Origin: Candidatus Syntropharchaeum sp.
GTDB lineage: Archaea; Halobacteriota; Syntropharchaeia; Syntropharchaeales; Syntropharchaeaceae
Direction: 5' to 3'
NCBI GenBank assembly: GCA_026134025.1
Contig: JAOQII010000002.1
Location: 6,008-70,007, forward strand
Length of the DNA: 64,000 nt
The notes under the pieces were generated by a model. The model saw only the letters and a program-made list of their open reading frames with translations. It did not search any database and was not told where the DNA came from. The number at the start of each line of letters is the position of its first letter. Positions within the stretch are counted from its first letter, which is position 1. The position numbers and the translations under genes are program-made. Below, piece by piece: positions 27,739 through 40,661 of the stretch.

Positions 27739-28185
27739 TTGAAGACAGACCTGGTCTATTGGGAAGATGAGATTGGAAAGACGCCAAAGAAGATTTCAGT
27801 AGACGTAAGTCCCTATGGTATACAATTGGGGACGAGAGCAGAGTGGCAGATGGGAATTGCTGCAGAGGATAAGAAGGTTGAGGCAAATGTATTGACGCCG
27901 ATCAAAATAATGCCGGTAACGGTCCCAGAAGGGGCGATTGTGCTACCATGTATCTTCATGCGACACGCACTTGGAATCGTTACAGGTATTACATGCAGTG
28001 GAAGATGTAAACCCGTCGAAGAGGAACGTACAATCTCTGAGGTTCTCTTTCATCCGATTGAAAGTGGCGTAATTTATAAAAATGAGCTTTTGACCGTTAT
28101 AAACATCATACCTGCTGCAATTGAGGAAGAGCTGCCGAGCAAAGAAGCGGTATACAGGTGGATGCAAAAGCGATATGAGGAATGA
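27739..28185 (+). CDS. Hypothetical protein (weak resemblance to the FwdD / molybdopterin-dinucleotide-binding beta-barrel)
   Basis: 148 aa with a TTG start and an ATGA overlap with mvhD. 'VTVPEGAIVLP' loosely recalls the FwdD 'MPEGMIYIP'. No firm assignment. Confidence 0.45.
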   Translation: MKTDLVYWEDEIGKTPKKISVDVSPYGIQLGTRAEWQMGIAAEDKKVEANVLTPIKIMPVTVPEGAIVLPCIFMRHALGIVTGITCSGRCKPVEEERTISEVLFHPIESGVIYKNELLTVINIIPAAIEEELPSKEAVYRWMQKRYEE

Positions 28186-28604
28186 GCTGGCAACCAAAAA
28201 TACTTGCATTCTGCTGTAACTGGTGCTCGTATGCAGGGGCTGATCTTGCAGGGGTTGAACGGAGGCAGATGCCACCCACGGTCAGGATCATACGCGTCAT
28301 GTGCTCAGGCACGGTTGATCCTGCCTGGGTACTTGAGGCTTTTTTAGAGGGTGTGGACGGCGTACTGATAACAGGTTGCCATCCTGGAGAATGTCATTAC
28401 CTTAATGCAAATTATCATACGGCGAGGAGATACCGCCTGCTCGAGGCGTTTGTTAAGGAGTTCGGGCTTGAACCAGCACGACTGCGACTTGAGTGGATCG
28501 CAGCAACAGAGGGCGTTAAGTTTGCAGAGGTTGTGCGAGATATGACCGATAAAATCAGGGCACTTGGCCCAAGCCCGCTAAGGCCAGAAGAGGGGGTTAG
28601 GTGA
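28182..28604 (+). CDS. mvhD: MvhD-type [2Fe-2S] protein (methyl-viologen-reducing hydrogenase delta subunit family)
   Basis: 'KILAFCCNWCSYAGADLAG...IRVMCSGTVDPAWVLEAF..GVDGVLITGCHPGECHY' is the classic MvhD signature. Confidence 0.85.
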   Translation: MSWQPKILAFCCNWCSYAGADLAGVERRQMPPTVRIIRVMCSGTVDPAWVLEAFLEGVDGVLITGCHPGECHYLNANYHTARRYRLLEAFVKEFGLEPARLRLEWIAATEGVKFAEVVRDMTDKIRALGPSPLRPEEGVR

Positions 28605-29749
28605 CGGGTCAATCATACCTTGCATGGGCTAAAGACCCTGAGATCAGAAAACGTGGTGGTTCAGGTGGGTTTGTGACAGCAGCACTTATTGCAGGCATCA
28701 AAGAGGGGATCATCGATGAAGTGCTCCTTGTCAGGCGGATCGATCAGTTCGAGAGTGTACCATACCTGACTCATGATCCTGAGGAGGTTAAATCAGCGAG
28801 CAGTCCACAGCTTGCAGCACCATTAAATCTCTCATCCTACATACCCAGGGGCGTAAAGGTTGCTGTCACGACGAAGCCATGTGATGCAAGGGCGATCATT
28901 GAACGTGCAAAGCGCGGACGTTTCGAGCTTGAGGATGTCTACATGGTTGGACTCAACTGCGGGGGTACGATGCCACCGGTATCAACCGTAGCGTCGGTTC
29001 GTGATATCTTCGGAGTTGATCCTGATACGGTTACAGGTATTGAGATCGAGAGAGGAGAGCTTATCTTCAAGCGAGATAGAGGCGAAGATTTGACCATCTC
29101 AATCGATGAAGCTGAGAAGAAGGGCTATGGTAGGCGTGAGTCGTGTAAGTACTGTAATACCAACATCCCTGAAATGGCAGATCTTGCATGTGGGAACTGG
29201 GGTGTGCCATCTGATCAAAGAGCAACATTTGTCGAGATCCTGAGTGCAAAGGGTGAAGAGCTTTTTGAGGCTGCAAAGAAAACTTCCATGATCGAGTTTG
29301 AGGATGCAACTCAGAAAGAGCTCGAAAAGCGCCTGAAAATAGACAGGCGAATGCGTGAACTTGCGAATCGAAGGTGGGATGAGGTTGCTGGTGTGCTTGA
29401 TGAAATGGATCGCTTAGCCTATTATATCAACGAGTTTAGCCGTTGTATCCATTGTGAAAGCTGTAAGATCGTCTGTCCAGTATGTGTTTGTGAGGCTGAT
29501 GCCAAGTGCCTTGATATGGGACAGGGAAACAATCATTACAGGATCTCACTCTATAATATGATCAGGCTCTTTCATCTGATGGACTCGTGCATCGGTTGTG
29601 GGCAGTGTGAGGACGTATGCCCGGTTGATATACCACTCACCATGATTCACCAGCGATTTGAGAGGCGGATGGAGGAGATGATTGGCTATCGACCTGGTTT
29701 TGATCTTCAAAAGCCACCGCTGCAAAAGCCAGAGGAAGGGGTGAAGTGA
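28601..29749 (+). CDS. FrhB/FdhB-family F420-binding Fe-S protein with C-terminal 2x[4Fe-4S]
   Basis: 'RGGSGGFVTAALIAGIKEGIIDEVLLV' and 'CKYCNTNIPEMADLACGNWG' (FrhB N and C domains). The C-terminus has 'CIHCESCKIVCP' and 'CIGCGQCEDVCP'. This is the FdhB-like architecture. GTGA overlap with mvhD. Confidence 0.75.
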   Translation: MTGQSYLAWAKDPEIRKRGGSGGFVTAALIAGIKEGIIDEVLLVRRIDQFESVPYLTHDPEEVKSASSPQLAAPLNLSSYIPRGVKVAVTTKPCDARAIIERAKRGRFELEDVYMVGLNCGGTMPPVSTVASVRDIFGVDPDTVTGIEIERGELIFKRDRGEDLTISIDEAEKKGYGRRESCKYCNTNIPEMADLACGNWGVPSDQRATFVEILSAKGEELFEAAKKTSMIEFEDATQKELEKRLKIDRRMRELANRRWDEVAGVLDEMDRLAYYINEFSRCIHCESCKIVCPVCVCEADAKCLDMGQGNNHYRISLYNMIRLFHLMDSCIGCGQCEDVCPVDIPLTMIHQRFERRMEEMIGYRPGFDLQKPPLQKPEEGVK

Positions 29750-30738
29750 TGGAGTTTATACCGAGTATCTGTCCTGGGTGCTGTATCAACTGCGGGCTTT
29801 ACATCGTGAGGGATGAAGATGGTGGTATCAGGATTGACTACCGTAAATCATCCTCGGTCAATGAGGGTAAACTATGCAGATTCGGGGTAGAGCTTGGAGA
29901 CCTTTACTCACAGGAGCATCTTAAAGCCACCGTGAATGGTAAAGAGGTTGATTTTAATACCGCAAAAAAAGAAGCTTTGAAGCGGTTGAAGAAAACTGAT
30001 CCCAGATCGACAGGATTTTTAGCAATGGGTAACTCAACGAATGAGGAGATACGGGCGTTCAAGAAACTTGCAGGGGAGCTAGGAATTCGGAATATCGACT
30101 GTGGTCTATCAAAGCAGATTTTGAACGTGCCTGAAGCTGCAAGAAATTATCTCACAGCAGGAGTACCACTCAGAGAGATTGAGCAGGCAGAGAAGATCCT
30201 GCTGATCTCGTTCAACCCGGAAAACTACCCACTTATCATCAGGAGATTGCTTCGCGCAGAGCGGAATGGTGCTGAACTTCTCAAGGTCGGGTCCGGTGAG
30301 CCATATGTGGGAAGGGGTGCGATTATAGTCTCAGAGCTTGCCCCAACGAGTGATCCTGCATCCATCAGGCAAATCATTGAAGAAGCAGATGATACAGCCA
30401 CAATTCTTTTCATGAAGCCGTATGCAAACTTAAATGGTGCAATTAGACTTGGCTTCTATGGGTTTGACCTGATCGAGGCAATAAGAAGCGATGAGATAAA
30501 ATCACTATTTCTGCTTGATCCTCCACCAGGTTATGAAGATATATTCCACGACCTTGAGCTTCTTGTTGTTCAATCAGATCATGAGAGTGAGGTAACAGAG
30601 ATGGCAGATATTACACTTCCTTCACCACGTTTTTTCGAGCGAAGAGGGACGGTCGTGAATGTTGAGGGTGACGTGCTGCCAGTCGGTGGCGATTCGGGAG
30701 CAGGTGTTGAGATTCCCTCAAAGATCATTTTTCCTTAA
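29746..30738 (+). CDS. Truncated molybdopterin-oxidoreductase-like protein (FdhA/FwdB N-terminal part only)
   Basis: The N-terminal Fe4S4 motif is 'CPGCCINCG...NEGKLCRFG', followed by 'LAMGNSTNEEIRAFKKLAGELGIRNIDCG'. It is only 330 aa, against 680 aa or more for FdhA, and ends at a TAA. Confidence 0.65.
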   Translation: MMEFIPSICPGCCINCGLYIVRDEDGGIRIDYRKSSSVNEGKLCRFGVELGDLYSQEHLKATVNGKEVDFNTAKKEALKRLKKTDPRSTGFLAMGNSTNEEIRAFKKLAGELGIRNIDCGLSKQILNVPEAARNYLTAGVPLREIEQAEKILLISFNPENYPLIIRRLLRAERNGAELLKVGSGEPYVGRGAIIVSELAPTSDPASIRQIIEEADDTATILFMKPYANLNGAIRLGFYGFDLIEAIRSDEIKSLFLLDPPPGYEDIFHDLELLVVQSDHESEVTEMADITLPSPRFFERRGTVVNVEGDVLPVGGDSGAGVEIPSKIIFP

Positions 30739-30747
30739 AACCACTAA

Positions 30748-30757
30748 GTATATATAG
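30748..30757 (+). promoter_or_regulatory. TATA-like element (agtatatata) upstream of the McrA-like operon
   Basis: Lies in the 86-nt spacer after the upstream module, about 68 nt before ATG 30825. That ATG has the SD aaaggagg at 30811-30818. Confidence 0.35.
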
Positions 30758-30824
30758 AAGGAGTAGCAATAAGCTTACTCGCAACGATATATGTGAATTA
30801 ATTGTGATCGAAAGGAGGCATTAA

Positions 30825-31949
30825 ATGGAGAAGATAGGAAGACCACATCATGATTTTACAGAGGAATGGGCTTATGAACGTTGGATGTTTGAGACGCACA
30901 TACTTGGAAGACCTGGCGATTCCAAGCGAGAGACGCCGATAAAGCTTACGCAGTCGCTTGATAAGTATCTGCAGACTGAGGTCTCGCAGTGGTGGAGAAT
31001 CGGAATGCTTGAGAGTTCTCAGACGGTCAATCTGTGGACACAGGGTCTCTTAGTAGATCCAGAGAATACCACCGTGACACTGGGTTATCCACCCTGTTAC
31101 TCCGCGGCTGTGCCGCTTGACCCTGCTGCAACGATTGCATTATTTGGTAAATCACTCGATCTCTGCTGGTTGCAATCCGATAACTTCTCAGGGAGGGCAA
31201 ACCCTCATACCGTCTCATATCACTACGAGGATGGTGTGATGACGTACATCGCGATGACCGACCCGGGTGAGGGGCAGGAGCTTGTTGAGCGGAAGCACAT
31301 GAAGGTCGGTAAGGAGGTAAAAGATCTCCCATACAATTATCCCGCGTTTGAGGCCGTGATGCTGATCAGGGATGTGATGATGGATGCAAGGAACGAGGAT
31401 ACCCCGGAGTATGCGATGTCTGCGTACCATCAGGGATGCTGGCAGGCACACCACGGCTACAACGAGTCTTTCCCCTCAAGATCGACGATGGATGCGATCA
31501 TGGGTATGTATCCGTTCTTCAACTGTGAGAAGATGGGGTGGCCCTTCAAGTCAACCTGTGATGAGCTACCAAGGCCCGTGGGGCTTGAGCTTTTAGTTGA
31601 GAACCCACCAGATATCTTCACATGGAGATGGAACGCACTGATTCTGGGTGAGAACTGGTCGAGCAAGTACACGATCTCACCCCACGAGCTGCACCTCGAG
31701 CTGCAGGGTATGGAGACGATTCCATGCACACCAGAAGAGACTGCCCGCAGGATCATCAGATATGGTATGGATAGATACGTCTTCCCTGAGACGTTCAAGC
31801 AGTCGACGTACATCTATGGGGATGAGGCAAGGGTACAGGAGCCAACAGAGTATCCACTCCCTGCCAAGACTGTTGTCTCTCACAAGGATGCAACCGATCT
31901 GATCTATAAAGCGCGAAAAGAACATCCTGAATGGATAATGGAGGTATAA
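30825..31949 (+). CDS. Hypothetical protein, 374 aa, rich in Trp, Tyr and His (occupies the position of mcrB but has no McrB motifs)
   Basis: Strong SD and a long ORF with a 3-nt gap to the next gene. I recognise no family. The McrB signatures (for example SHSIYGGGGPG) are absent. Confidence 0.7.
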   Translation: MEKIGRPHHDFTEEWAYERWMFETHILGRPGDSKRETPIKLTQSLDKYLQTEVSQWWRIGMLESSQTVNLWTQGLLVDPENTTVTLGYPPCYSAAVPLDPAATIALFGKSLDLCWLQSDNFSGRANPHTVSYHYEDGVMTYIAMTDPGEGQELVERKHMKVGKEVKDLPYNYPAFEAVMLIRDVMMDARNEDTPEYAMSAYHQGCWQAHHGYNESFPSRSTMDAIMGMYPFFNCEKMGWPFKSTCDELPRPVGLELLVENPPDIFTWRWNALILGENWSSKYTISPHELHLELQGMETIPCTPEETARRIIRYGMDRYVFPETFKQSTYIYGDEARVQEPTEYPLPAKTVVSHKDATDLIYKARKEHPEWIMEV

Positions 31950-31952
31950 AAG

Positions 31953-32498
31953 ATGCCGATAGATTACAGTGTTTCAAAGAAGATTGTCGAGAATGGCATG
32001 GTGAACGTGGATAAACTCTGCCCTCACTCAGGGTTTGACAACGATATATATAATATACCGGCATGCAAGGCACCGATCGTTAACAAAGAGCTTTTATACT
32101 CGTACGTCCCAGATTGTGGGGTCTTCATGGGTCCAAAGACGACAAAGGCAAAATCACTTGTATATGGTGGAGAAGCAGAACCGCTCTATACGTATACCTG
32201 TGAGAAGGGGCACAAGTTTGTACGATGGTCTGGATGGTGTGATGTTCCCGAGGTTGAGCCTGGAACGAATGACCTGCACATGAGCGCTGAGACACTTGTC
32301 AAAGAGGGTAAGATGTTCGGGAGGCTTGAGAACTTTGAACCAAGGAGTACCCCAGGCTATGTATCAGTGGTCAAGAAGATTGAGGAAGAGGGATACACCC
32401 CAACCCAGGACGAGATGGAACAGTTCGGCATAACCCCAGAGGGAAAGGGACATGGAAATCCAGCCGTGCATGAATTGAAGAAGTGGGGATTGAAGTAG
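31953..32498 (+). CDS. Hypothetical protein, 181 aa, with 5 Cys (occupies the position of mcrG but has no McrG motifs)
   Basis: Starts 3 nt after the previous stop. Cys/His pattern: 'CPHSG', 'PACK', 'PDCG', 'YTCEKGH' and 'GWCDVP'. The McrG signature (RYRG.D.GTLSGRQ) is absent. Confidence 0.65.
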   Translation: MPIDYSVSKKIVENGMVNVDKLCPHSGFDNDIYNIPACKAPIVNKELLYSYVPDCGVFMGPKTTKAKSLVYGGEAEPLYTYTCEKGHKFVRWSGWCDVPEVEPGTNDLHMSAETLVKEGKMFGRLENFEPRSTPGYVSVVKKIEEEGYTPTQDEMEQFGITPEGKGHGNPAVHELKKWGLK

Positions 32499-32528
32499 TT
32501 ATTTAGTTAATTATAAGTATAAAAGAAG

Positions 32529-34412
32529 GTGAATAAATTGGCTAAGAAGAAGAAGGCGACCAAGGGAGGGGTAAGTACTGGGCTTACAGATCTCGAGGAT
32601 AAGTATCGGAACAAGATGTTCCATGAGGTAACCGAGGGGACCGTCATCTCAACAGAGCTTGCATACAGTTACGATCCACTGAAACTGAAAGATGAGTTCA
32701 TGCCAGTAGAGCGTCAGCGGGAGATTTACAAGGCTCTCGATACGCTCTTCAATGGCGAACCGATGGATACTGTCGATGAGGAATCGTATCGGCATGGTGG
32801 TGTCCAGCAGTGTAAATCAAAGCGAGACTGGACTGAGTGGGGTAAGAAAATCTCGGTTGAGCGTGGAATCCCGCAGTACAACCGTGAGATGGGTATCCCG
32901 CTGGGTCAGCGATACTATGAACCTATTCTTGTATCAAATACCGACTATGTCGTGGACTATGATGACTTCTCGATCTACAACAACTGCGCGATCCAGCAGT
33001 TGATGGATGATATGAGAAAGACCGTGATAATCGGGCTTGATGTCCCGCATCGAGTCATCCAGCTCAGGCTCGGTAAGGAGATCTCTCCTGAGTCGATGAA
33101 CCTCTACATGGAGACGATGCAGCACGTGCTCGCAGGCGGTGCGGTTGTCCAGGAACACATGGCAGAGGCACATCCAGGTCTTGTTACTGATGCGTATGCG
33201 AAGATTATCACAGGAAACGCGGATCTTGCAGAGCAGTTCGATAGAAGATGGGTGATGAGTATTGAGAAAGAGTTCCACCCATCAAGGGCTGAACCTCTCC
33301 ACGAAACGATCGGAAACAGGCTCTACAATACGATCAGAACCCATACGCTCAGGCTGAGGATGACAAATGGAGCGGCTGTCATCAGGAGTGCGGCTATCGC
33401 TGTCACGATGTCATTTGTCGCGGCATACAAATTAACAGGCGAGTCGGTCCTATCTGATATCTCATTTGCAACACGGCATGCACAGGCGATTCACATGGGG
33501 CTTCCAACGTGGCTCTCGAGATCGCAGTCGCCGAACGAGCCTGGAGGAATCCCACTGGGGTACTGGGCTGATATGTGCTGTGCTGAGAAGGAGCTGCCGA
33601 ATACACCATGGATGAAGGCTGTTACCATCGAGCGGGACATGCAGCTCGGAAAAGATATGACCCAGGCTGTGCTTGAGTGCTGTGCTATCGCTTCACATAT
33701 GGATTCGGTATGGTATGGCATCTACATGTCAGGTGGACTTGGATTCCCGGCGTTTGCATATCTCTACTGTGGTAACATCCTCGATGACTGGCTCAACCGT
33801 TTCACTGAACTGTGCTACTACAACTTTGAGGGGCATGAGCGTTTCCCGGATTCGTGGGACTGTGCCAAGGGGATGGGTGAGGTTGCAGCCCTCTACCTCA
33901 TGGAGACGTATGAGAAGTACCCAACACTTCAGGAGCTTCACTGGGGCGGTGCGATCAGGTGCTTCATAACCTCAGCGATCGCAGATTCCTTTGCCGCACT
34001 TTTAACAGGTGATGCACTCCAGGGCTCGATGATCCAGAACTACATCGTCTCACTCCTCATGAAGGAGGGGTGGCTCAGGACCGGCTTTGGTGGACAGGAG
34101 GTGCAGGCACACTGTGGGCCCGCGTACGGGACATCGCTCAGGATCGAAGAGGGTGGACTCCCGGAACTTCGAGGGTCGAACTATCCAATGATGTCCTATA
34201 CAGCGACACACACACCAGGCTATATCACAGGGATTTATGCAGCGATGATAGGTCGAGGATCGTCATGGTCCTGCAGTCCCCTTGTGAAGGTTGCGTTTGC
34301 AGATCCTGATTCGTCATTTGACTTCAAGAATGCGCGGCTCTGCATCGCAAAGGGCTGCGCAAACGAGTTTGAACCGCAGGGTGAGCGTGACCTGATAAGG
34401 CCTGCACGATAA
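32529..34412 (+). CDS. mcrA: Divergent methyl-/alkyl-coenzyme M reductase alpha-subunit homologue (orphan McrA-like protein)
   Basis: It aligns by eye with McrA along its whole length. Matching blocks are 'ERGIPQYNREMGIPLGQR', 'RKTVIIGLD..RLGKEISPE', 'GGAVVQEHMAEAHPGLVTDAY', 'SPNEPGGIPLGYWADM', 'YMSGGLGFPAFAY..GNILDDW', 'LPELRGSNYP', 'SPLVKVAFAD' and 'EFEPQGERDLIRPA'. It is 627 aa with an N-terminal extension of about 60 aa. The start is GTG 32529 or TTG 32538. Confidence 0.9.
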   Translation: MNKLAKKKKATKGGVSTGLTDLEDKYRNKMFHEVTEGTVISTELAYSYDPLKLKDEFMPVERQREIYKALDTLFNGEPMDTVDEESYRHGGVQQCKSKRDWTEWGKKISVERGIPQYNREMGIPLGQRYYEPILVSNTDYVVDYDDFSIYNNCAIQQLMDDMRKTVIIGLDVPHRVIQLRLGKEISPESMNLYMETMQHVLAGGAVVQEHMAEAHPGLVTDAYAKIITGNADLAEQFDRRWVMSIEKEFHPSRAEPLHETIGNRLYNTIRTHTLRLRMTNGAAVIRSAAIAVTMSFVAAYKLTGESVLSDISFATRHAQAIHMGLPTWLSRSQSPNEPGGIPLGYWADMCCAEKELPNTPWMKAVTIERDMQLGKDMTQAVLECCAIASHMDSVWYGIYMSGGLGFPAFAYLYCGNILDDWLNRFTELCYYNFEGHERFPDSWDCAKGMGEVAALYLMETYEKYPTLQELHWGGAIRCFITSAIADSFAALLTGDALQGSMIQNYIVSLLMKEGWLRTGFGGQEVQAHCGPAYGTSLRIEEGGLPELRGSNYPMMSYTATHTPGYITGIYAAMIGRGSSWSCSPLVKVAFADPDSSFDFKNARLCIAKGCANEFEPQGERDLIRPAR

Positions 34413-34425
34413 GGAGGTATTAGCG

Positions 34426-35013
34426 ATGGTATACTATGGAGAGGTTGCACCAACTGCATATGAAAACGTACCAGGGCACTTTCTACCAACACCGCCACTG
34501 CCTGACAGGTGGTGGGATGATGTTGACTGGATCATCCTGAAGGATCACGAACCGACAGCGTACGAGATGCTCTTTGACTTCTACATCAACATGATCGTGC
34601 CAAATCCGAAGTGCACGATGGTTTCATCGAGATTTCCGCCAAGGTCAATCCTTATCGAGACGTGGCACCCCGAGCGTGGGCTTGAGGTTAACAGGTTCAT
34701 GATATCCCCTGGTGGGATCAGAGAGGGTGCACCTGAGCCAGGATCAGGTGTTGAGGTCGATACAATCTTCAGGATCGACTACTATGACCTCGCAAATATC
34801 CTGCTCGGCAATAAGCGACCAACCGATCCTGTGGCTGATAACGCAAGGATCAATGAGCTCTATGGTGGTCCGTGTCTCAGGGGAAACCTGACGGCACTCA
34901 TCGATTTCAAGGATATCATCATGCTTGCACATGGTAAGCGATGGAAGACTGAGTGTGATGATGATCTCGGAAAGGAAGTAAGAGCGATGATGTGGCCTGA
35001 TGGCCACCCCTAA
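34426..35013 (+). CDS. Hypothetical protein, 195 aa, with a possible SCP2-like (lipid/alkyl-binding) C-terminal half
   Basis: Starts 13 nt after the mcrA-like stop, with SD aaggaggt. 'FRIDYYDLANILLGNKRPTDPV...LRGNLTALIDFKDI' resembles the SCP2 pattern 'D..D...l..GK.nP..af..GklkikGnm.la.kl'. The assignment is tentative. Confidence 0.55.
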   Translation: MVYYGEVAPTAYENVPGHFLPTPPLPDRWWDDVDWIILKDHEPTAYEMLFDFYINMIVPNPKCTMVSSRFPPRSILIETWHPERGLEVNRFMISPGGIREGAPEPGSGVEVDTIFRIDYYDLANILLGNKRPTDPVADNARINELYGGPCLRGNLTALIDFKDIIMLAHGKRWKTECDDDLGKEVRAMMWPDGHP

Positions 35014-35043
35014 TTTTTTTTCTTTTTTAATCAAAATATTTTT

Positions 35044-36108
35044 TTGATGAAACTCTGTGCACCCCTGCCCGGGCATCTTGACGCAACAAAGAAGATTCTA
35101 AAAGAAGAAGCTTCCAATCTCCATGAAGTCTTCATGGCTGGGTCTTCAGATTATATCCCAACAGGCAGGCAGGCTCTTGGAGAATCCTTCAGTGAGACGA
35201 TAGAAGAGACAACGAGGCTTGTACATGAAGATAACCTTCGCATGGACGTTGTGATGAACGCCTCGTGCATGGGAGGAAGACACCTCACGGATGAGGGTTT
35301 GCACCGTTACATGAGCTACCTTGAGATACTCGCACGTGCGGGTGTTGATGCTGTGACGCTTGCAGATCCCTACCTCATCGAGGTTGCATCCAGAAACTTC
35401 TCGTTTGATGTCATCGTCTCATGTATCTCCTTTGTGGATTCTCCAGAGAAGGCTATCTTCTATGAAGAGCTTGGTGCGGATGGTATAACAGTTGATACGA
35501 GTATAAACAGAGATTTCCACGTGCTTGAGGCGATTAGAGATGCTGTATCCTGTGATATCAGGGTTCTTGTCAATGAAGGGTGTCTCTATAAATGTCCTTT
35601 CAGGTACTTTGACTTCAACGTCGTATCGCATACCTCAGGTCCTCCGCCAGTACCAAAGATCTCATTCAACTACTACCAGCGCAAATGCAGATCTTTGAGG
35701 GTTAAGAAGCCGTGGCTTCTGATGAAGGCAAACTGGGTAAGGCCAGAAGACCTGAAGGCATACGAAGAGATCGGGATCGATACCTTCAAGATAAGCGGGA
35801 GAAATCAACCTGTAAACTGGGTGATCGAGACCATCAAGACCTATAAAAGCAGGGACTTTTCCGGAAATCTCATCGATCTTCTCGATTATTCAAGGAGTAT
35901 GAAGCATCTCTTCTACATCCCAAATAAGAAACTCGATGGGGCGATAGATAGATGGAAGTCATGTGACAGGAACTGTCATCGATGTGGGTTCTGCAAAGAT
36001 CTGACAGCGCAGATCATGAAGGTATATCTTGAGAGGGGGACGGATCGAGAAATGCTTGTAAGTCTAACTGAGTTGAATGAAGGAGTTCCTGATGAATACC
36101 CTGAATAA
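35044..36108 (+). CDS. Peptidase-U32-family protein (the family that includes UbiU/UbiV, RlhA and TrhP)
   Basis: TIM-barrel-like layout: 'ILARAGVDAVTLADPYLIEVA', 'EELGADGITVDTSINRDF' and 'IRVLVNEGCLYKCPFRY', which resembles the U32 'EvFvhGalC...G.C' motif. There is also a C-terminal Cys cluster 'CDRNCHRCGFC'. Confidence 0.6.
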   Translation: MMKLCAPLPGHLDATKKILKEEASNLHEVFMAGSSDYIPTGRQALGESFSETIEETTRLVHEDNLRMDVVMNASCMGGRHLTDEGLHRYMSYLEILARAGVDAVTLADPYLIEVASRNFSFDVIVSCISFVDSPEKAIFYEELGADGITVDTSINRDFHVLEAIRDAVSCDIRVLVNEGCLYKCPFRYFDFNVVSHTSGPPPVPKISFNYYQRKCRSLRVKKPWLLMKANWVRPEDLKAYEEIGIDTFKISGRNQPVNWVIETIKTYKSRDFSGNLIDLLDYSRSMKHLFYIPNKKLDGAIDRWKSCDRNCHRCGFCKDLTAQIMKVYLERGTDREMLVSLTELNEGVPDEYPE

Positions 36109-36469
36109 TTTGCTCGATCATCGAGGATCGATTGAGAAGCGTCTCATGAAACTGACAGGACGTGTGATCTGGGTTGTACAGCTCAATCTATCCTCCTTCA
36201 GCTGCGGGTGCACCGGGATAACGATATTTTTTGCGGGGCTTGAGAAAGAGGACGTTGAGGTATTTGCATCCAGGATCGTCGAGATACTCAACGAGGTCAC
36301 AGCAAGCGTGAGACTTGATCCTGATATCATCTATGCGTCGCTGGTACCTGGATCATCAGAGGTTGGCTCGATCTCACTGAAACGCCTATGTGATGAATGC
36401 AGAAAAGACTATGGCGGAGATGTAAGGCCCTGGAGTAACATAAGCATTCTTTATAAAAAAGCGTGCTAA
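36092..36469 (+). CDS. Hypothetical protein (about 125 aa), last gene of the McrA-like operon
   Basis: The ORF overlaps the U32 gene's 3' end by 17 nt (32 nt if it starts at 36077). I recognise no family. Confidence 0.4.
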   Translation: MNTLNNLLDHRGSIEKRLMKLTGRVIWVVQLNLSSFSCGCTGITIFFAGLEKEDVEVFASRIVEILNEVTASVRLDPDIIYASLVPGSSEVGSISLKRLCDECRKDYGGDVRPWSNISILYKKAC

Positions 36470-36524: not shown

Positions 36525-36551
36525 ATGTGGAGAGAGTGATAGTATATCTCT

Positions 36552-36624
36552 GCCCGGGTAGTGTAGAGGCCCATCATGGAGCCCTGTCGAGGCTTCGACT
36601 CGGGTTCGAATCCCGACCTGGGCG
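36552..36624 (+). tRNA. tRNA-Asp (anticodon GTC)
   Basis: Cloverleaf folded by hand. The acceptor stem GCCCGGG/CCTGGGC has one G-U pair. The anticodon stem GAGCC/GGCTT closes the loop CTGTCGA. The T-arm is GGGTTCGAATCCC. 73 nt, no encoded CCA, and a T6 tract follows at 36629-36634. Confidence 0.9.
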
Positions 36625-36659
36625 TACATTTTTTATCTATTGAGATTGTTAATCAAAAT

Positions 36660-39600
36660 ATGCGTTCTTATTACACTAATATTAAGCGAATGAGGGAGAT
36701 CATTAAAAATTGTGAGGGCTTTGATCGGATCATCGTTGTAACATCAAATAAGAATCAGGCGGCATTCTGGAAAAAGAGGCTTGATGGGGTCAAAGATCAG
36801 ATCATAGGTCAAAATTCGAAGATCTATGTTGTTCTTGAAGAATGGAAGGCTGGACAGCTTCTTGGCACATTGAACGCGTGGAATGAAGCCTGTAAGGAGG
36901 AGGATCTTGATGCACTTCTGGAGAATGGGGGGAAGGTTGCTATATACCACACCGCGGGTCTTGGGAAGCGTATGGCGCCGATTGTTCAATCAGAGGGGGG
37001 AGATAAATCTGCGATTAAGCTTCCAGGGTTACTTGAATATGACGGGCAAAAGGTACCAATGAGACTGCTTGAAGCTGTAATATACCAGTCTTCGATATTT
37101 GCACCGTCTCGTAGGGGCAGGATCTGCGTTTTCTGGACAGATCAGGTCTTTATTCCATCAGGAGATGTGGAGTTTGAAGGAAAGCATCACGTCGAACTCT
37201 TGAGTATCAGAAGAGAAGCACCGAGAACCCGGGAGGATTGGGACCAGAACTGGCGGTCTTACGGGCTTGTAATCCCTGATGATGATGGGGCAATGATGCT
37301 CGAGAAGCAAACCTGGGATGAGTTTACGAGGCTCATCGATGGTGGCATCATAAAGCCAAAGAAAGGGAAGTTTGTAATCGCAAAAGGACTTGGATGTTTC
37401 TCGATATCACATAAATTCTTCATTGAAGTTCTTGCTGCGTTCAGGAAGGATCTGGAAGAGCGAGGGAAGCTTGATACAGATCCTGATCTGTGGATGCCCC
37501 TGACATCACCCCAATTTGTTGAGACCGAGAAAAGGGCAAGAGTTGAAGGTTTGATAGATAAATTTGCACCGGGAGATCTGATCTTTAAAGATAAAGACGT
37601 GGGTGCTGATACATACTGGTGGGACTTTGGACAGGTCAGGCTCTACCATCAAAACCTGTTGAAACTGACAGAGGAGACAGAAGAGGGGGAGGTGATGCGT
37701 ACCTTCTTCAGGATCTGGAATGGCTCATCTGTGGTTGATAGCGTGATTAAGGATTCAGATCTTAGAGCGTGTGTCGTGATCTCAAGCCGGCTCAAGGGCG
37801 TGAGAGCGAAAAACTCTGTCATCTACAACTGTATCGAGCTTTCTGGATTCTCGGCTGAGAAGGAGGTTGTTGCAGATATTTTTCATCCGCTCAAGGGAAA
37901 GATAAGGATGAGAGCAGAGATATCTCGGGATGGAAAAAAAGACTGGAACCAGCGAATTTCTCCAAACTCATATACCTACGAGGAGCTTGAGTGTTTGATG
38001 AGAGATGTCTCGATGGATGAAATACACAAAGAGAGGCGTGTCTGGGAGAACTACTTCACACTGGATCTTGGAGCGGAATTTGATAGACTTAAATATTCAG
38101 GTGTACGGTTTAAGGAGAATCTCGTTCTGAAGGCATGGGGATACGAGTCCTGGCTCTGCTCTGCTCATCCCGCAAACCCATCGATGATAAGGGTTAGAGA
38201 TCTTGATATACCCCTGATTCACCTCCTGAATCATTGTGGAAGCTCGATAATCGGTAAGCAGATTTACAGCGATTTCAAGGGTGAGTTTCCGATACTGACC
38301 AAGTTCATAAACGCAGAGGAGAACCTATCTGTCCAGGTCCACCCATCTGATGAGGATGCTGAGCTTTTAGGTGAGGTTGAACGAGGAAAGACCGAGAGCT
38401 GGTACGTGATCGATGCAAAGCCAGGTGCAAAGATATATCTTGGCCTTAAAGAGGGGATCTCTGATCTTTCTGCGATTACAGAGGATGACCTGAATGCGAT
38501 CGAGGTTAAAGCTAATGATGTGTTCCTCATTCCTGCAGGAACACTTCATGCGATAGGTGGGGGAATTCTCCTCTTTGAGATTCAGGAATCGTCTGATATA
38601 ACATACAGGGTCTGGGATTGTGGGAGGGGGAGAGAACTTCATCTTGAGAAGGCGAGAGTAGTTTGCGTCTTTGATCAGGATCCAACTAATTTAAAACAAA
38701 GTCCTGAGCAAGTTAATGGCGAGATAGTACTTGTTGATACGCTTTATTTCACTTTATCGCTTATAGAAAGCGGTAAAGAGGAGACCATGGGATCATTTCA
38801 TCTTCTGACCGCGATCGAAGAAGATGCTGTGCTGGAGGTTGATGGAAGGCACGAGGAGTTAAAAAAAGGTGATACGGTCTTGATTCCAGCATCTATCCCG
38901 GCATACAGGATCAGATCGCGTGGAAAGGTTCTGAAGTCGTATCTTCGCACGCCTGAACAGATAGATCCTGTGATCTTCCAGACGTATGATGTGAGAGCTC
39001 ATGAGAGCAAACTTCCAGACCGGGTCTGCTATTACCTTGGAAAGGGATATGGGACCTATCTGCGCAGGCTTAAAGGTGCACCAGAAGGTGAGTTATGGGT
39101 CTGCATCGGCGGTGGGATCAGGCTCTCAACCCCACGGATAAGAAAGTCGCTCATCGCTGGAGTCTTATCAAGTGGTGTCAACGTCTACGATCTTGGGATA
39201 ACCTCAACACCAGAACTTTACTTCTCAATCCCCTTCCTCGGTGCGGATGGTGGGATAAATATAACAGCATCTCACAACCCGGCTTTTTACAACGGCCTTA
39301 AACAGGTCATAAAAAGTGATGATGGTTTCATATCAAGCATAAATCGTGATGAGATGCTTGAGATAAAAAGGACGATCCTCGAATCGGATTTTCTTGAGGG
39401 GAAAGGAAGGTCGATGAAGGTCGAGGAGGGATCGATCCCCAGATACCATAACATTCTCGTTGAGTCAAATTGCAGACTCGGCAGGGAGATCTGGATTCAT
39501 CTTTTAAAGAATTGGAACCTGAGAGAACTTCTCGATACGCTCTCAAACGTGAGCTTTCCAGAAAAGGCAGATCGAAAAAGCTTGAAAGCGATTAAGGAGA

Positions 39601-40661
39601 GGCTTCGGATTCCAGATGACCTTGAGTTGCCCATTACAGCGGTTGATAAGCCACTGGCTGGTCTGAAAGTTGTTATAGACTTTGGTAACGGCTCTGCATG
39701 GAGGACACAACGTGTGTATGAAAATCTGGGCTGTGAGGTCATTGGCTTGAATCAAAAACCTGATGGAAATTTCCCAGCCCATCATCCTGACCCCATCAAG
39801 GCAAAATACCGAAAAGAGCTTGAAGAAACTACTGTCAGGGTTGCAGCACAGGAGAAAGAGAAGGAAGTTGTGGGGTTCGGGCACGACGAGGATGGGGATC
39901 GCGTAATTTTTGTCAGATCTGATGGAAAGGTTGTTGAGGGAGATCGGACGCTTGCGATACAGGCGAAAGATATAATAGAGGATTACAGCACAAGAGGGAA
40001 AAAACCAAAATTCATCGGTGAGGTTAAGTTCTCACGGGTTACAGAAGAGTTCATAACGTCGAGTGGGGGCGAGTATATCATGACACCGACGGGTTTTGCC
40101 TTCATAAAGGAGCGGATAAAGGAAGAATACAAGAAGGGGGAAGATGTTGTGCTTGCAGCAGAGCTTTCAGGACATCAGATGACAGGGCATGAAGAGAACT
40201 GGATGTTTGATGACGGAACAATGGCAGCCTGTAAACTTCTTATTGTAATCGCAAAGGCAAGGTCTGAGGGCAAGACGTTCATCGATCTTGATGAGGCTAT
40301 TCCACGCTATCCTGCAACACCTGAGATAAACATAAAACTTCCAACGAATGCGCTCGATGAGAAGGAGGAGATTGTGAGAACAGCTCTCAGGCGATTTGAA
40401 GAGATGGATTTTGAGATAGATTACACTGATGGTGGCTTGATAAAGTGGTATGATGACGAGGGTTGGGCGGGGCAGGCACTCATCAGAAAATCAAACACAC
40501 AGCCGATGATAATATGCAGGGTTGAAGGCAGGGATGAAGCGAGAAAGGAAAGGGTCGAGGCAGAGTTCTTCGGCGTGCTTGAGCAAATATCGACCGATGT
40601 TCTCGATAAGCTTGATCTTGAGTCTGATGATTACCTCAGGGAATGGAAAGTTAAGAGATAA
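36660..40661 (+). CDS. Three-domain fusion: FPGT/fucokinase-N-like sugar-1-phosphate nucleotidyltransferase + type I mannose-6-phosphate isomerase + phosphomannomutase/phosphoglucomutase
   Basis: The N-terminus has 'RIIVVTSNKNQAAFWKKRL' (FPGT-like). The middle part has the PMI cupin motifs 'QVHPSDEDAE', 'TESWYVID' and 'IPAGTLHAIGGG..EIQESSDITYRVWD'. The C-terminus has the PGM/PMM motifs 'NITASHNPAFYNG', 'GHDEDGDR' and 'AELSGH'. The start was moved to ATG 36660 because the ORF-track start overlaps tRNA-Asp. Confidence 0.85.
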   Translation: MRSYYTNIKRMREIIKNCEGFDRIIVVTSNKNQAAFWKKRLDGVKDQIIGQNSKIYVVLEEWKAGQLLGTLNAWNEACKEEDLDALLENGGKVAIYHTAGLGKRMAPIVQSEGGDKSAIKLPGLLEYDGQKVPMRLLEAVIYQSSIFAPSRRGRICVFWTDQVFIPSGDVEFEGKHHVELLSIRREAPRTREDWDQNWRSYGLVIPDDDGAMMLEKQTWDEFTRLIDGGIIKPKKGKFVIAKGLGCFSISHKFFIEVLAAFRKDLEERGKLDTDPDLWMPLTSPQFVETEKRARVEGLIDKFAPGDLIFKDKDVGADTYWWDFGQVRLYHQNLLKLTEETEEGEVMRTFFRIWNGSSVVDSVIKDSDLRACVVISSRLKGVRAKNSVIYNCIELSGFSAEKEVVADIFHPLKGKIRMRAEISRDGKKDWNQRISPNSYTYEELECLMRDVSMDEIHKERRVWENYFTLDLGAEFDRLKYSGVRFKENLVLKAWGYESWLCSAHPANPSMIRVRDLDIPLIHLLNHCGSSIIGKQIYSDFKGEFPILTKFINAEENLSVQVHPSDEDAELLGEVERGKTESWYVIDAKPGAKIYLGLKEGISDLSAITEDDLNAIEVKANDVFLIPAGTLHAIGGGILLFEIQESSDITYRVWDCGRGRELHLEKARVVCVFDQDPTNLKQSPEQVNGEIVLVDTLYFTLSLIESGKEETMGSFHLLTAIEEDAVLEVDGRHEELKKGDTVLIPASIPAYRIRSRGKVLKSYLRTPEQIDPVIFQTYDVRAHESKLPDRVCYYLGKGYGTYLRRLKGAPEGELWVCIGGGIRLSTPRIRKSLIAGVLSSGVNVYDLGITSTPELYFSIPFLGADGGINITASHNPAFYNGLKQVIKSDDGFISSINRDEMLEIKRTILESDFLEGKGRSMKVEEGSIPRYHNILVESNCRLGREIWIHLLKNWNLRELLDTLSNVSFPEKADRKSLKAIKERLRIPDDLELPITAVDKPLAGLKVVIDFGNGSAWRTQRVYENLGCEVIGLNQKPDGNFPAHHPDPIKAKYRKELEETTVRVAAQEKEKEVVGFGHDEDGDRVIFVRSDGKVVEGDRTLAIQAKDIIEDYSTRGKKPKFIGEVKFSRVTEEFITSSGGEYIMTPTGFAFIKERIKEEYKKGEDVVLAAELSGHQMTGHEENWMFDDGTMAACKLLIVIAKARSEGKTFIDLDEAIPRYPATPEINIKLPTNALDEKEEIVRTALRRFEEMDFEIDYTDGGLIKWYDDEGWAGQALIRKSNTQPMIICRVEGRDEARKERVEAEFFGVLEQISTDVLDKLDLESDDYLREWKVKR

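Follow-up and report, generated by a model that had tools for sequence, protein, structure and literature searches.

Can an McrA homologue that is encoded with no McrB or McrG nearby belong to an ordinary alkyl-coenzyme M reductase (ACR), and what are the genes packed around it for? The question is raised by a cluster of six genes, all on the + strand (30825 to 36469), in a window of 64 kb, the whole stretch of DNA that was analyzed. A sequence-only reading had described six co-directional genes behind a TATA-like box and a Shine-Dalgarno sequence, which was confirmed, and had proposed an undescribed MCR-derived enzyme system. That proposal is now unlikely because the McrA homologue is a normal ACR-clade member, the separation of its gene from acrB and acrG has been published, and relatives of its upstream neighbors lie beside true acrB and acrG. 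The explanation that we favor, and consider probable with some room for doubt, is that this is a split-locus acrA whose beta and gamma subunits are encoded elsewhere, that the products of ORF1 (X), ORF2 (Y), and ORF4 (S) are its partners, and that the two last genes, U32-DUF5402, are separate.

Organization of the cluster

An 86-nt spacer (30739 to 30824, + strand) precedes the first gene and, as read from the sequence, serves as its promoter and 5' leader; the spacer includes a TATA-like box, TATATATA (30749 to 30756, + strand), and the Shine-Dalgarno sequence GGAGG (30814 to 30818, + strand). The genes that follow are ORF1 (30825 to 31949; 374 aa), ORF2 (31953 to 32498; 181 aa), acrA (32529 to 34412; 627 aa), ORF4 (34426 to 35013; 195 aa), ORF5 (35044 to 36108; 354 aa), and ORF6 (36077 to 36469; 130 aa). 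Gaps of 3, 30, 13, and 30 nt separate ORF1 through ORF5, and ORF5 and ORF6 overlap by 32 nt.

The source is a different species from Ca. Syntrophoarchaeum butanivorans. Leader conservation between the two starts at the TATA box, with none farther upstream, and the genes upstream of the acrA cluster are not the same. Across all six genes the dN/dS values against S. butanivorans were 0.04 to 0.24, which indicates purifying selection; the neighborhood recurs in other genomes, with no sign of decay. As noted before, the surroundings also encode CODH/ACS, ETF, two beta-oxidation sets, an Fpo-like complex, and a multiheme cytochrome.

Identity of the McrA homologue

The central 627-aa protein had been taken for an McrA homologue, and its Pfam matches to MCR_alpha_N (1.5e-85) and MCR_alpha (6.4e-21) bear this out. 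It aligns end to end with solved McrA (7.7e-131), and its homology to canonical McrA, at ~40 to 45% identity, extends over the whole length. Its TIGR03256 score, 480 bits, is under the canonical cutoff of 767.75, and phylogenetic placement in a neighbor-joining tree put it inside the ACR clade. Its closest relatives are from Syntropharchaeales (96% identity), S. butanivorans (~84 to 85%), and Ca. Alkanophaga (55 to 57%).

The alpha subunit is intact, with a dN/dS of 0.078 against S. butanivorans. It retains the VVQEHM motif of canonical McrA, which we take to be the nickel-ligand glutamine site, and, in the GFYGYxLQDQCG loop, both G522 and C529, presumably the thioglycine and S-methylcysteine positions, in each case by reference to the Methanothermobacter marburgensis enzyme. 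It differs from canonical McrA in an N-terminal extension of ~57 aa and an insertion of ~20 to 25 aa near residues 359 to 385. The protein is thus an ordinary ACR-clade alpha subunit, the catalytic part of an alkyl-coenzyme M reductase that activates alkanes. The Ca. Alkanophaga orthologue of the gene is the acrA which that genus expresses most highly. The source archaeon, related to Ca. Syntrophoarchaeum, has several ACRs, and the present locus is the acrA cluster of one of them.

Separation of acrA from acrB and acrG

No mcrB or mcrG was found within the 64-kb window, in agreement with the sequence-only reading, and the cluster differs from canonical mcrBDCGA in that mcrB, mcrG, mcrC, and mcrD are all missing from it. 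An acrA apart from acrBG has already been published for Ca. Alkanophaga and Ca. Syntrophoarchaeum (PMC10322722; PMC9081873). The non-operonic acrA of S. butanivorans (Laso-Perez 2016, as recounted in PMC9081873 and PMC10322722) is of the same clade and has the same flanks: X, Y, S, U32, DUF5402, and PMI/PGM. The "third cluster" acrA of Alkanophaga likewise lies apart from acrBG. That site differs from the present one in having ycaO between X and acrA, in its Y-X rather than X-Y order, and in lacking S, U32, and DUF5402. X and Y beside ycaO-acrA were left without annotation, and an unpaired acrB-acrG is found at another site in each of the two Alkanophaga genomes (PMC10322722, supplement 9).

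In sister lineages the gene order is B-G-X-Y-A-S, true acrB and acrG included, and X, Y, and S share one cluster with genuine acrB/acrG at loci L020, L022, L023, L032, L012/L025, L019, and L027/L028. The adjacent acrB-acrG that the sister lineages have kept has been lost from the present cluster. We infer that alpha joins beta and gamma subunits whose genes lie at other sites in the genome to give the usual alpha2-beta2-gamma2 F430 enzyme, which would convert an alkane and the CoM-S-S-CoB heterodisulfide to alkyl-CoM and HS-CoB. The window encodes neither beta nor gamma. Scans of S. butanivorans recovered a single acrB, which belongs to a complete B-G-A operon, so that support for such split assembly comes from the literature and from the sister genus.

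Protein families that accompany ACR

ORF1 and ORF2 had been reported to have no recognizable family, and for neither did Pfam or NCBIfam give anything at E <= 1, nor did PDB sequence searches find a match. Both are under constraint (dN/dS of 0.066 for ORF1 and 0.098 for ORF2 against S. butanivorans). The X family is rare: a set of 1.84e9 proteins yielded only 72 representative clusters of it. Its tree co-diverges with that of AcrA (r = 0.85), and between the two Syntrophoarchaeum species X is 91% identical, above the 84% of AcrA. X adjoins ACR-clade acrA genes in multiple lineages and was found in Syntropharchaeia, Alkanophagales, Archaeoglobi, Helarchaeota/Lokiarchaeota, Hadarchaeales, Bathyarchaeota BA2, and Methanoliparum, in a sample that lay outside the ethane oxidizers.

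At least one X-Y pair was present in 11 of the 18 sampled X-bearing loci with acrA, and X alone was found in the other 7. X adjoins Y, often abutting or overlapping it, in all 17 sampled Y-bearing loci; no Y was detected in Helarchaeota, Hadarchaeota, BA2, or Methanoliparum. The C-terminal extension of ORF2 is genus-specific.

S is directly 3' of acrA in 17 of 29 ACR-clade loci, an order seen in Archaeoglobi, Helarchaeota, Hadarchaeota, and Methanoliparia. The earlier description of this 195-aa protein as SCP2-like holds at the family level only. ORF4 itself falls below SCP2 in Pfam, but members of the S family, gathered by jackhmmer, from BA2 and Methanolliviera pass the Pfam SCP2 gathering score, and the profile of the family hits structures of sterol carrier protein 2 (4uei, 2e-5). 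S may bind the hydrophobic alkane or the alkyl-CoM product and hand it to or from ACR.

X, Y, and S were absent from all 51 canonical mcr loci, and the ACR-linked set appears to be undescribed. All three families are conserved, had gone unannotated, and accompany ACR across archaea; they are candidates for a part in assembling the enzyme or in the step that follows it in alkane oxidation.

Possible roles of X and Y

X and Y may assemble into a heteromer specific to their cognate ACR. For a role in maturation or assembly, or as an auxiliary subunit, we consider the case evenly balanced. Canonical mcrBDCGA also has accessory genes within the operon, and X-Y, at the D-C position of an ancestral B-G-X-Y-A order, hold the operon place of McrD and McrC. 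Like McrD, McrC, and component A2, X-Y occur inside the structural operon; in contrast to them, no ATPase motifs were identified in X-Y. None of X, Y, and S is related to McrC or McrD: Pfam gave no MCR_C or MCR_D match, and X-Y showed no similarity to McrD in sequence or profile.

A less likely possibility, which nevertheless deserves consideration, is that the missing alkyl-CoM-processing enzyme is X, acting with Y in lineages that have it and perhaps with S to carry the substrate. X-Y would release HS-CoM and an oxidized C1 product, such as an aldehyde, which AOR would convert to a fatty acid and an AMP-forming synthetase to acyl-CoA for beta-oxidation. The slot for such an enzyme is vacant, as the step from alkyl-CoM to acyl-CoA has no assigned enzyme, with AOR put forward only tentatively (PMC10322722), and the confinement of X to multi-carbon-ACR lineages favors this role. 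So does gene context. In the complete Methanoliparum genome X is located away from the ACR genes, in the order unknown-X-ferredoxin-AOR-...-acyl-CoA synthetase, which gives some support to the earlier suggestion of an alkyl-thioether processing module for ORF1/ORF2. At locus L242 a distant X is found with FixC-like and ferredoxin genes, with an AOR gene 5 kb away, and at locus L006 an acyl-CoA synthetase gene is 4 kb from X. An enzymatic role fits the Methanoliparum and L242 contexts better than an assembly role does. The conserved His, Glu, Asp, and Arg residues of X and the Cys23/Cys38/Cys83/His87 set of Y, invariant in a 17-sequence alignment and a putative metal site, would also suit catalysis.

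However, X has neither a recognizable redox-cofactor motif nor a conserved cysteine, and several lineages that would need the same chemistry have no Y. In several lineages X-Y lie between acrG and acrA and are duplicated with each ACR paralogue, so that some clusters have two X-Y pairs; such placement between structural genes and paralogue-wise duplication are more typical of a subunit or chaperone. Association with YcaO, component A2, and McrD also points to maturation: the ycaO gene between X and acrA in Alkanophaga is of the McrA-thioamidation type, and at L006 X adjoins two component A2 genes and an McrD-like gene.

Relation of X and Y to the beta and gamma subunits

It is very unlikely that the McrA homologue is active without beta and gamma, with ORF1 and ORF2 as replacement subunits in a new MCR-derived complex. 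The absence of mcrB and mcrG from the window and the conservation and tight linkage of ORF1 and ORF2 to acrA are in its favor, as is the finding that none of the 18 PDB chains matched by AcrA is from the present ACR clade. However, as established MCR structures show, the active site requires residues of the beta and gamma subunits, to which X and Y have no detectable similarity. Furthermore, X/Y family members share an operon with true acrB/acrG in sister lineages whose AcrA is 49 to 55% identical; therefore, X and Y do not replace beta and gamma. The published acrA/acrBG split and the unpaired acrB-acrG pairs in both Alkanophaga genomes likewise make a beta/gamma-free enzyme doubtful.

The reading of ORF1 as a hyper-divergent McrB and of ORF2 as a hyper-divergent McrG, in a divergent acrBGA operon, can be dismissed with near certainty: although the order large-small-acrA resembles B-G-A and some X relatives, at 434 to 442 aa, are as long as McrB, Pfam returned neither MCR_beta nor MCR_gamma at E <= 1, hhalign probabilities for X/Y against McrA, B, G, and D were <1% (X versus B, 0.1%; Y versus G, 0.1%; B-versus-A control, 38%), a Foldseek search of the PDB with the confident AF2 model of ORF1 (pLDDT, 89.5; pTM, 0.87) gave nothing significant (top match E = 0.13, TM ~0.15) and did not return McrB, and real B and G occur alongside X/Y in L020, L022, L023, and L032. 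Thus, the identification of ORF1 as McrB is refuted by sequence, fold, and co-occurrence with real acrB, and sequence and co-occurrence with McrG argue against ORF2 as McrG.

The U32-DUF5402 genes and the 3' limit

ORF5, previously recognized as a U32-family neighbor, matched Peptidase_U32 in Pfam (1.2e-12) and has a C-terminal CxxxCxxCxxC motif. In NCBIfam it matched no UbiU or TrhP equivalog (UbiU, 13.8 bits versus a cutoff of 440). ORF6 had been described as a protein of about 125 aa with no family; its 130 aa match DUF5402 (PF17393; 4e-27), and its dN/dS against S. butanivorans was 0.24. Among the sampled loci, U32-DUF5402 is beside acrA only in Syntrophoarchaeum, and a Methanomicrobia MAG has a U32-U32-DUF5402 arrangement (L245) in a 9-kb locus free of acr genes. 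U32-DUF5402 is a module independent of the ACR unit, and in the cluster ORF5 and ORF6 would be merely co-directional with that unit. Therefore, although the six genes do share one direction, as first described, the functional unit probably comprises four.

The O2-independent hydroxylation system of E. coli, UbiT-UbiU-UbiV, consists of an SCP2 protein and two U32 proteins. Here, too, an SCP2-like ORF4 is directly upstream of a U32-family ORF5 with a Cys-rich C terminus. However, the present locus has a single U32 gene, S is tied to acrA in lineages without a nearby U32, and the L245 module has no SCP2 partner. The resemblance is probably coincidental.

The 3' limit of the cluster is a tRNA-Asp (GTC) gene identified with ARAGORN (36551 to 36625, + strand). 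The mechanical start of the next ORF, at 36576, lies within this tRNA gene.

Organization of the acrA cluster

The cluster comprises six genes on the plus strand: ORF1 (30825 to 31949; 374 amino acids), ORF2 (31953 to 32498; 181 amino acids), acrA (32529 to 34412; 627 amino acids), ORF4 (34426 to 35013; 195 amino acids), ORF5 (35044 to 36108; 354 amino acids), and ORF6 (36077 to 36469; 130 amino acids). The intergenic gaps from ORF1 through ORF5 are 3, 30, 13, and 30 nt, and ORF5 and ORF6 overlap by 32 nt. The 86-nt spacer 5' of ORF1 contains a TATA-like box (TATATATA, 30749 to 30756) and the Shine-Dalgarno sequence GGAGG (30814 to 30818). The layout and leader were thus as the sequence-only reading had described them, with six codirectional genes behind a TATA/Shine-Dalgarno spacer. 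From the TATA box onward the leader is conserved between the window and "Candidatus Syntrophoarchaeum butanivorans"; 5' of the TATA box the two sequences are unrelated and the adjacent genes are different. A conserved leader next to an unrelated 5' flank supports the presence of a promoter of the cluster's own. Comparison of the window with S. butanivorans indicated purifying selection on all six genes (dN/dS, 0.04 to 0.24).

The cluster ends at a tRNA-Asp(GTC) gene (36551 to 36625) directly 3' of ORF6. The mechanical start of the following 1361-amino-acid ORF (36576 to 40661), a phosphomannose isomerase/cupin/phosphoglucomutase fusion with approximately 500 N-terminal residues that lack a Pfam match, lies inside this tRNA, which places the actual start of the gene farther downstream. 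On the 5' side, an Fpo-like cluster (22488 to 24809 and 27739 to 30738) includes a fused NuoB-NuoC-NuoD protein of 773 amino acids, followed by DUF22, MvhD/FlpD-like, and FrhB-like genes and a short (330 amino acids) molybdopterin/Fdh-like gene that is the immediate upstream neighbor of the acr cluster.

Assignment of the central protein

The 627-amino-acid protein scored well above the Pfam gathering cutoffs for MCR_alpha_N (287.2 bits; cutoff, 27) and MCR_alpha (75.6 bits; cutoff, 25), and its residues 64 to 626 aligned to the solved McrA chain 1e6v_A (7.7e-131). It is full length and collinear with solved McrA chains, from which it differs in an N-terminal extension of approximately 57 amino acids and one insertion. 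The two domains and the full-length alignment establish it as a genuine McrA homologue, as had been proposed. It retains the VVQEHM motif and, in the GFYGYxLQDQCG loop (here GFGGQEVQAHCG), both the Gly and the Cys. We take these positions to be the axial Gln, thioglycine, and S-methylcysteine by M. marburgensis numbering.

The score on TIGR03256 was 480 bits, below the equivalog cutoff of 767.75, which indicates that the protein is not the canonical methanogenic enzyme and is consistent with the divergent clade of alkyl-coenzyme M reductases (ACR). The protein is 96% identical to that of a Syntropharchaeales MAG, 85% identical to that of S. butanivorans, 60% identical to those of other Syntropharchaeia, and 55 to 57% identical to those of "Ca. 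Alkanophaga"; further near relatives are found in Helarchaeota, Hadarchaeota, and Bathyarchaeota. Placement on a McrA phylogeny, which the sequence-only reading had proposed, located it within the ACR clade, beside S. butanivorans and Alkanophaga cluster 3, in a neighbor-joining distance tree without bootstrap. As judged from these sequence comparisons, the protein is the alpha subunit of an ACR (AcrA).

A second, deep-branching mcrA-like gene (558 to 566 amino acids) was observed at positions 1617 to 3317 of another Syntropharchaeia locus (L002; GCA_054799345.1). It lies directly 3' of a CdhA/Prismane-type gene, with no mcrB or mcrG nearby, and 1.2 kb upstream of genes for ORF2 and ORF1 homologues and acrA, with a 336-amino-acid opposite-strand gene between.

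Separation of acrA from acrB and acrG

No McrB or McrG was found within the 64-kb window. The description of an orphan McrA homologue stands in this respect, but the separation of acrA from acrBG has already been published, including for "Ca. Syntrophoarchaeum" (PMC10322722). The orphan status of acrA is real but not itself new, and its value is as a lead to three conserved, unannotated, ACR-linked families, here designated X (ORF1), Y (ORF2), and S (ORF4).

The published source table (PMC10322722) places an unpaired acrG-acrB (894 and 1380 bp) on contig 2 of A. volatiphilum and an unpaired acrB-acrG (1380 and 900 bp) on contig 29 of A. liquidiphilum, with the 1908-bp Alkanophaga acrA elsewhere, beside ycaO and two ORFs with blank annotation fields. 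The documented unpaired pairs are from this sister genus only. Among the loci listed in our acrB scans of reference genomes, only operonic copies were recovered (L174, L175, L166, and L167); the same scans yielded neither an unpaired acrB-acrG for S. butanivorans nor those of Alkanophaga, a gap probably explained by the choice of peptide patterns and the number of loci listed. L175 was considered as an unpaired pair and rejected because a partial acrA is present at the contig end (PMC10322722 table).

The window, Syntrophoarchaeum, Alkanophaga, and other Syntropharchaeia form a monophyletic group in the AcrA tree, and this group has simply lost acrB and acrG from its acr cluster. The parsimonious expectation is that an alpha2-beta2-gamma2 enzyme would be built from separately encoded subunits. 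The orphan acrA most likely represents a split operon of this kind, rather than the undescribed MCR-derived enzyme that had been suggested, and Alkanophaga has the unpaired acrB-acrG. The sequence-only reading was accurate in what it observed, and its interpretation is supported in part.

ORF1 and ORF2 compared with known MCR proteins

ORF1 and ORF2 had no Pfam (E ≤ 1), NCBIfam, or PDB sequence match, sequence and profile searches of the PDB with families X and Y gave nothing, and neither family matched the Pfam MCR_D or MCR_C domains. Family alignments built from 88 loci were compared with sets of 68 McrB, 73 McrG, 47 McrD, and 86 McrA sequences. Profile-profile probabilities of X and Y against McrA, McrB, McrG, and McrD were below 1%, compared with 38% for a control of McrB against McrA. 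For example, hhalign gave 0.1% for X against McrB (68 sequences), 0.1% for Y against McrG (73 sequences), and 0.2% and 0.1% for X and Y, respectively, against McrD (47 sequences).

An AlphaFold2 model of ORF1 from 59 homologues had a pLDDT of 89.5 and a pTM of 0.87; this confidence depends on the alignment, with a pLDDT of 30.6 with 5 sequences versus 89.5 with the 59 from an exhaustive search. Foldseek comparison of the model with 350,542 PDB chains gave no match with E ≤ 1e-3, and the 50 matches listed included no MCR chain. Weak matches to ASKHA/RNase-H-like subdomains (PilM, FtsA, Hsp70, and PanK-III) had E ≥ 0.13 and TM ≤ 0.2 and were not taken as evidence for an ATPase.

The most telling argument is that, in sister lineages, X and Y occur in clusters that also contain genuine acrB and acrG genes. 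The possibility, raised at the outset, that ORF1 and ORF2 might score or fold as McrB and McrG was not borne out in these comparisons: ORF1 as McrB is ruled out by Pfam, hhalign, the fold of the model, and coresidence with acrB, and Pfam, hhalign, and co-occurrence with true McrG in operons argue against ORF2 as McrG.

Families X, Y, and S

Family X is rare, with 72 representative clusters (E ≤ 1e-3) among 1.84 billion proteins, and its named members are all annotated as hypothetical proteins. These named members come from Syntropharchaeia, Alkanophagales, Halobacteriota MAGs from tar biofilms, Helarchaeota/Lokiarchaeota, Hadarchaeales, and Methanoliparum. No Pfam domain was found in any of 59 X members or in long X-like proteins. 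Conserved residues are P89, P90, G108, E135, H158, G162, D187, R189, and P249, and the family alignment contains no conserved cysteine. The X profile matches six separate parts of one 1443-amino-acid protein (P0188, from a 189-kb ENA contig) that lacks any Pfam domain and may represent X in tandem repeat.

Y proteins are 108 to 183 amino acids long, and their genes adjoin X in all 17 sampled Y-bearing loci, often abutting or overlapping. The invariant residues C23, P24, C38, C83, E84, H87, and R91 suggest that Y carries a putative Cys3-His metal site.

ORF4 had been described as SCP2-like. This holds at the family level and for part of the protein, but ORF4 alone gave no Pfam SCP2 match at E ≤ 1. 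S members from BA2, a member of the Bathyarchaeota (34.7 bits), and Methanolliviera (24.5 bits) exceeded the PF02036 SCP2 cutoff of 21.3, and a profile of 21 S sequences matched SCP2 structures (2e-5 to 2e-4) over only positions 102 to 157, the C-terminal 55 or so, of its 171 positions. S is directly 3' of acrA in 17 of the 29 sampled ACR-clade loci, including Methanoliparia.

Conservation of the neighborhood in other genomes, another point raised from the sequence, is evident in that X, Y, and S adjoin ACR genes in several archaeal lineages. At least one of the three is beside ACR genes in at least 18 of the 29 sampled ACR-clade loci, and none was found in 51 canonical mcr loci of methanogen and ANME type; all three families are restricted to archaea that have ACR. 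With A, B, and G denoting acrA, acrB, and acrG, the gene order is B-G-X-Y-X-Y-A-S in L023 and B-G-X-Y-A-S in L022 and L032. "Ca. Polytropus" (L025 and L012) has B-G-A-S with an adjacent Y-X pair on the other strand, Helarchaeota (L019) have X-X-B-G-A-S, and Hadarchaeota (L027 and L028) have A-S-B-G-X-A-S.

The X, Y, and S families are unannotated in the published Alkanophaga table (PMC10322722), their database names are no more specific than "hypothetical protein," and the portions of that study's supplements consulted contained no expression values for X or Y ORFs. In the literature searched, nothing relevant was found on SCP2 or sterol carrier proteins in connection with ACR or Syntrophoarchaeum, or on cryo-EM structures of ACR that contain extra subunits.

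The U32-DUF5402 pair

ORF5 matched Pfam U32 (48 bits; cutoff, 22.4) and reached neither of the equivalogs UbiU (13.8; cutoff, 440) and TrhP (11.2; cutoff, 534). ORF6, initially thought to have no recognizable family, is a DUF5402 protein (PF17393, 95.1 bits; cutoff, 25). Among the loci sampled, the U32-DUF5402 pair is beside acrA only in Syntrophoarchaeum. In Methanomicrobia archaeon LH_S14 (L245, 3000 to 5391), two tandem U32 paralogues, 46 to 49% identical to ORF5, precede DUF5402 in a 9-kb locus from which acr genes are absent. We therefore treated ORF5-ORF6 as a module separate from the ACR unit. The U32 tandem in L245 recalls the UbiU-UbiV heterodimer, and S with U32 in the window resembles UbiT with UbiU. 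However, a firm link of ORF4-ORF5 to a UbiT-UbiU-like pair was rejected because S is linked to ACR without U32 elsewhere and the L245 module has no SCP2 partner, the 195-amino-acid gene that follows it being unrelated to S.

Possible roles of X and Y

For the anaerobic oxidation of multicarbon alkanes by archaea, the reactions that convert alkyl-CoM to acyl-CoA are explicitly stated to be not known (PMC10322722), and poor knowledge of accessory proteins is a bottleneck for heterologous MCR production (PMC9081873). X, for which there is a confident predicted structure without a PDB relative, Y, and S are clonable candidates for ACR assembly, ACR composition, or the alkyl-CoM-to-acyl-CoA step. 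Whether they prove to be assembly factors, additional subunits, or the next enzyme, they make both gaps directly testable. To our knowledge, purification, structure determination, and heterologous production have yet to be reported for any enzyme of the main ACR clade.

The reading that we favor, with about an even chance of being correct, is that X-Y would be a dedicated ACR partner, either a maturation/assembly factor or an extra subunit. Consistent with this, X-Y is placed between acrG and acrA; at least one X-Y pair is present in 11 of 18 sampled X-bearing acrA loci (the other 7 have X only); X and AcrA have parallel trees (Pearson r = 0.85, 171 pairs); and X is more conserved than AcrA. 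Furthermore, in Alkanophaga a gene for a YcaO of the thioamidation type separates X from acrA, and one X gene (L006) adjoins two genes for the MCR activation component A2 and a McrD-like gene. X and Y may be extra subunits of ACR-clade enzymes, beyond alpha2-beta2-gamma2.

It is also conceivable, though we consider it rather unlikely, that X, with Y and possibly S, forms an enzyme system that would process the alkyl-CoM from ACR, releasing CoM and an oxidized product that AOR, an aldehyde-oxidizing enzyme, and an acyl-CoA synthetase would convert to acyl-CoA. X is confined to ACR lineages, and this step has no assigned enzyme (PMC10322722). In the complete genome of "Ca. Methanoliparum," X, which matches the family profile with E = 4.6e-45, is away from the ACR genes, in the order unknown-X-ferredoxin-AOR-...-acyl-CoA synthetase-...-RACo-AOR. 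Elsewhere, genes for acyl-CoA synthetase, FixC-like proteins, ferredoxin, or AOR are neighbors of X. The location of X-Y between acrG and acrA and the parallel X and AcrA trees are among the reasons that we prefer the dedicated ACR partner.

Several X loci were recorded in more detail. In "Ca. Methanoliparum sp." LAM-1 (AP025251.1; L247, 927 to 13828), and also in L246, an island apart from the acrBGA operon is a candidate alkyl-CoM-to-acyl-CoA island; its order in L247 is a 388-amino-acid unknown, an X-like protein (577 amino acids), ferredoxin, AOR, acyl-CoA synthetase, CMD, DUF483, DUF1638, RACo, and a second AOR. X genes without a visible acr cluster occur in L006 (773 to 7738), where the neighbors also include a long-chain acyl-CoA synthetase gene, and in L008 (137 to 3279), a 6.3-kb contig with an X-Y-X-(short Y) array. 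Other Alkanophaga acr operons (contigs 2, 11, 18, 29, and 45; PMC10322722 supplement 9) are flanked by FixC-like flavoprotein genes and a YjiL/HgdC-like activator ATPase gene, and a FixC-like gene is 3' of a distant X gene in L242.
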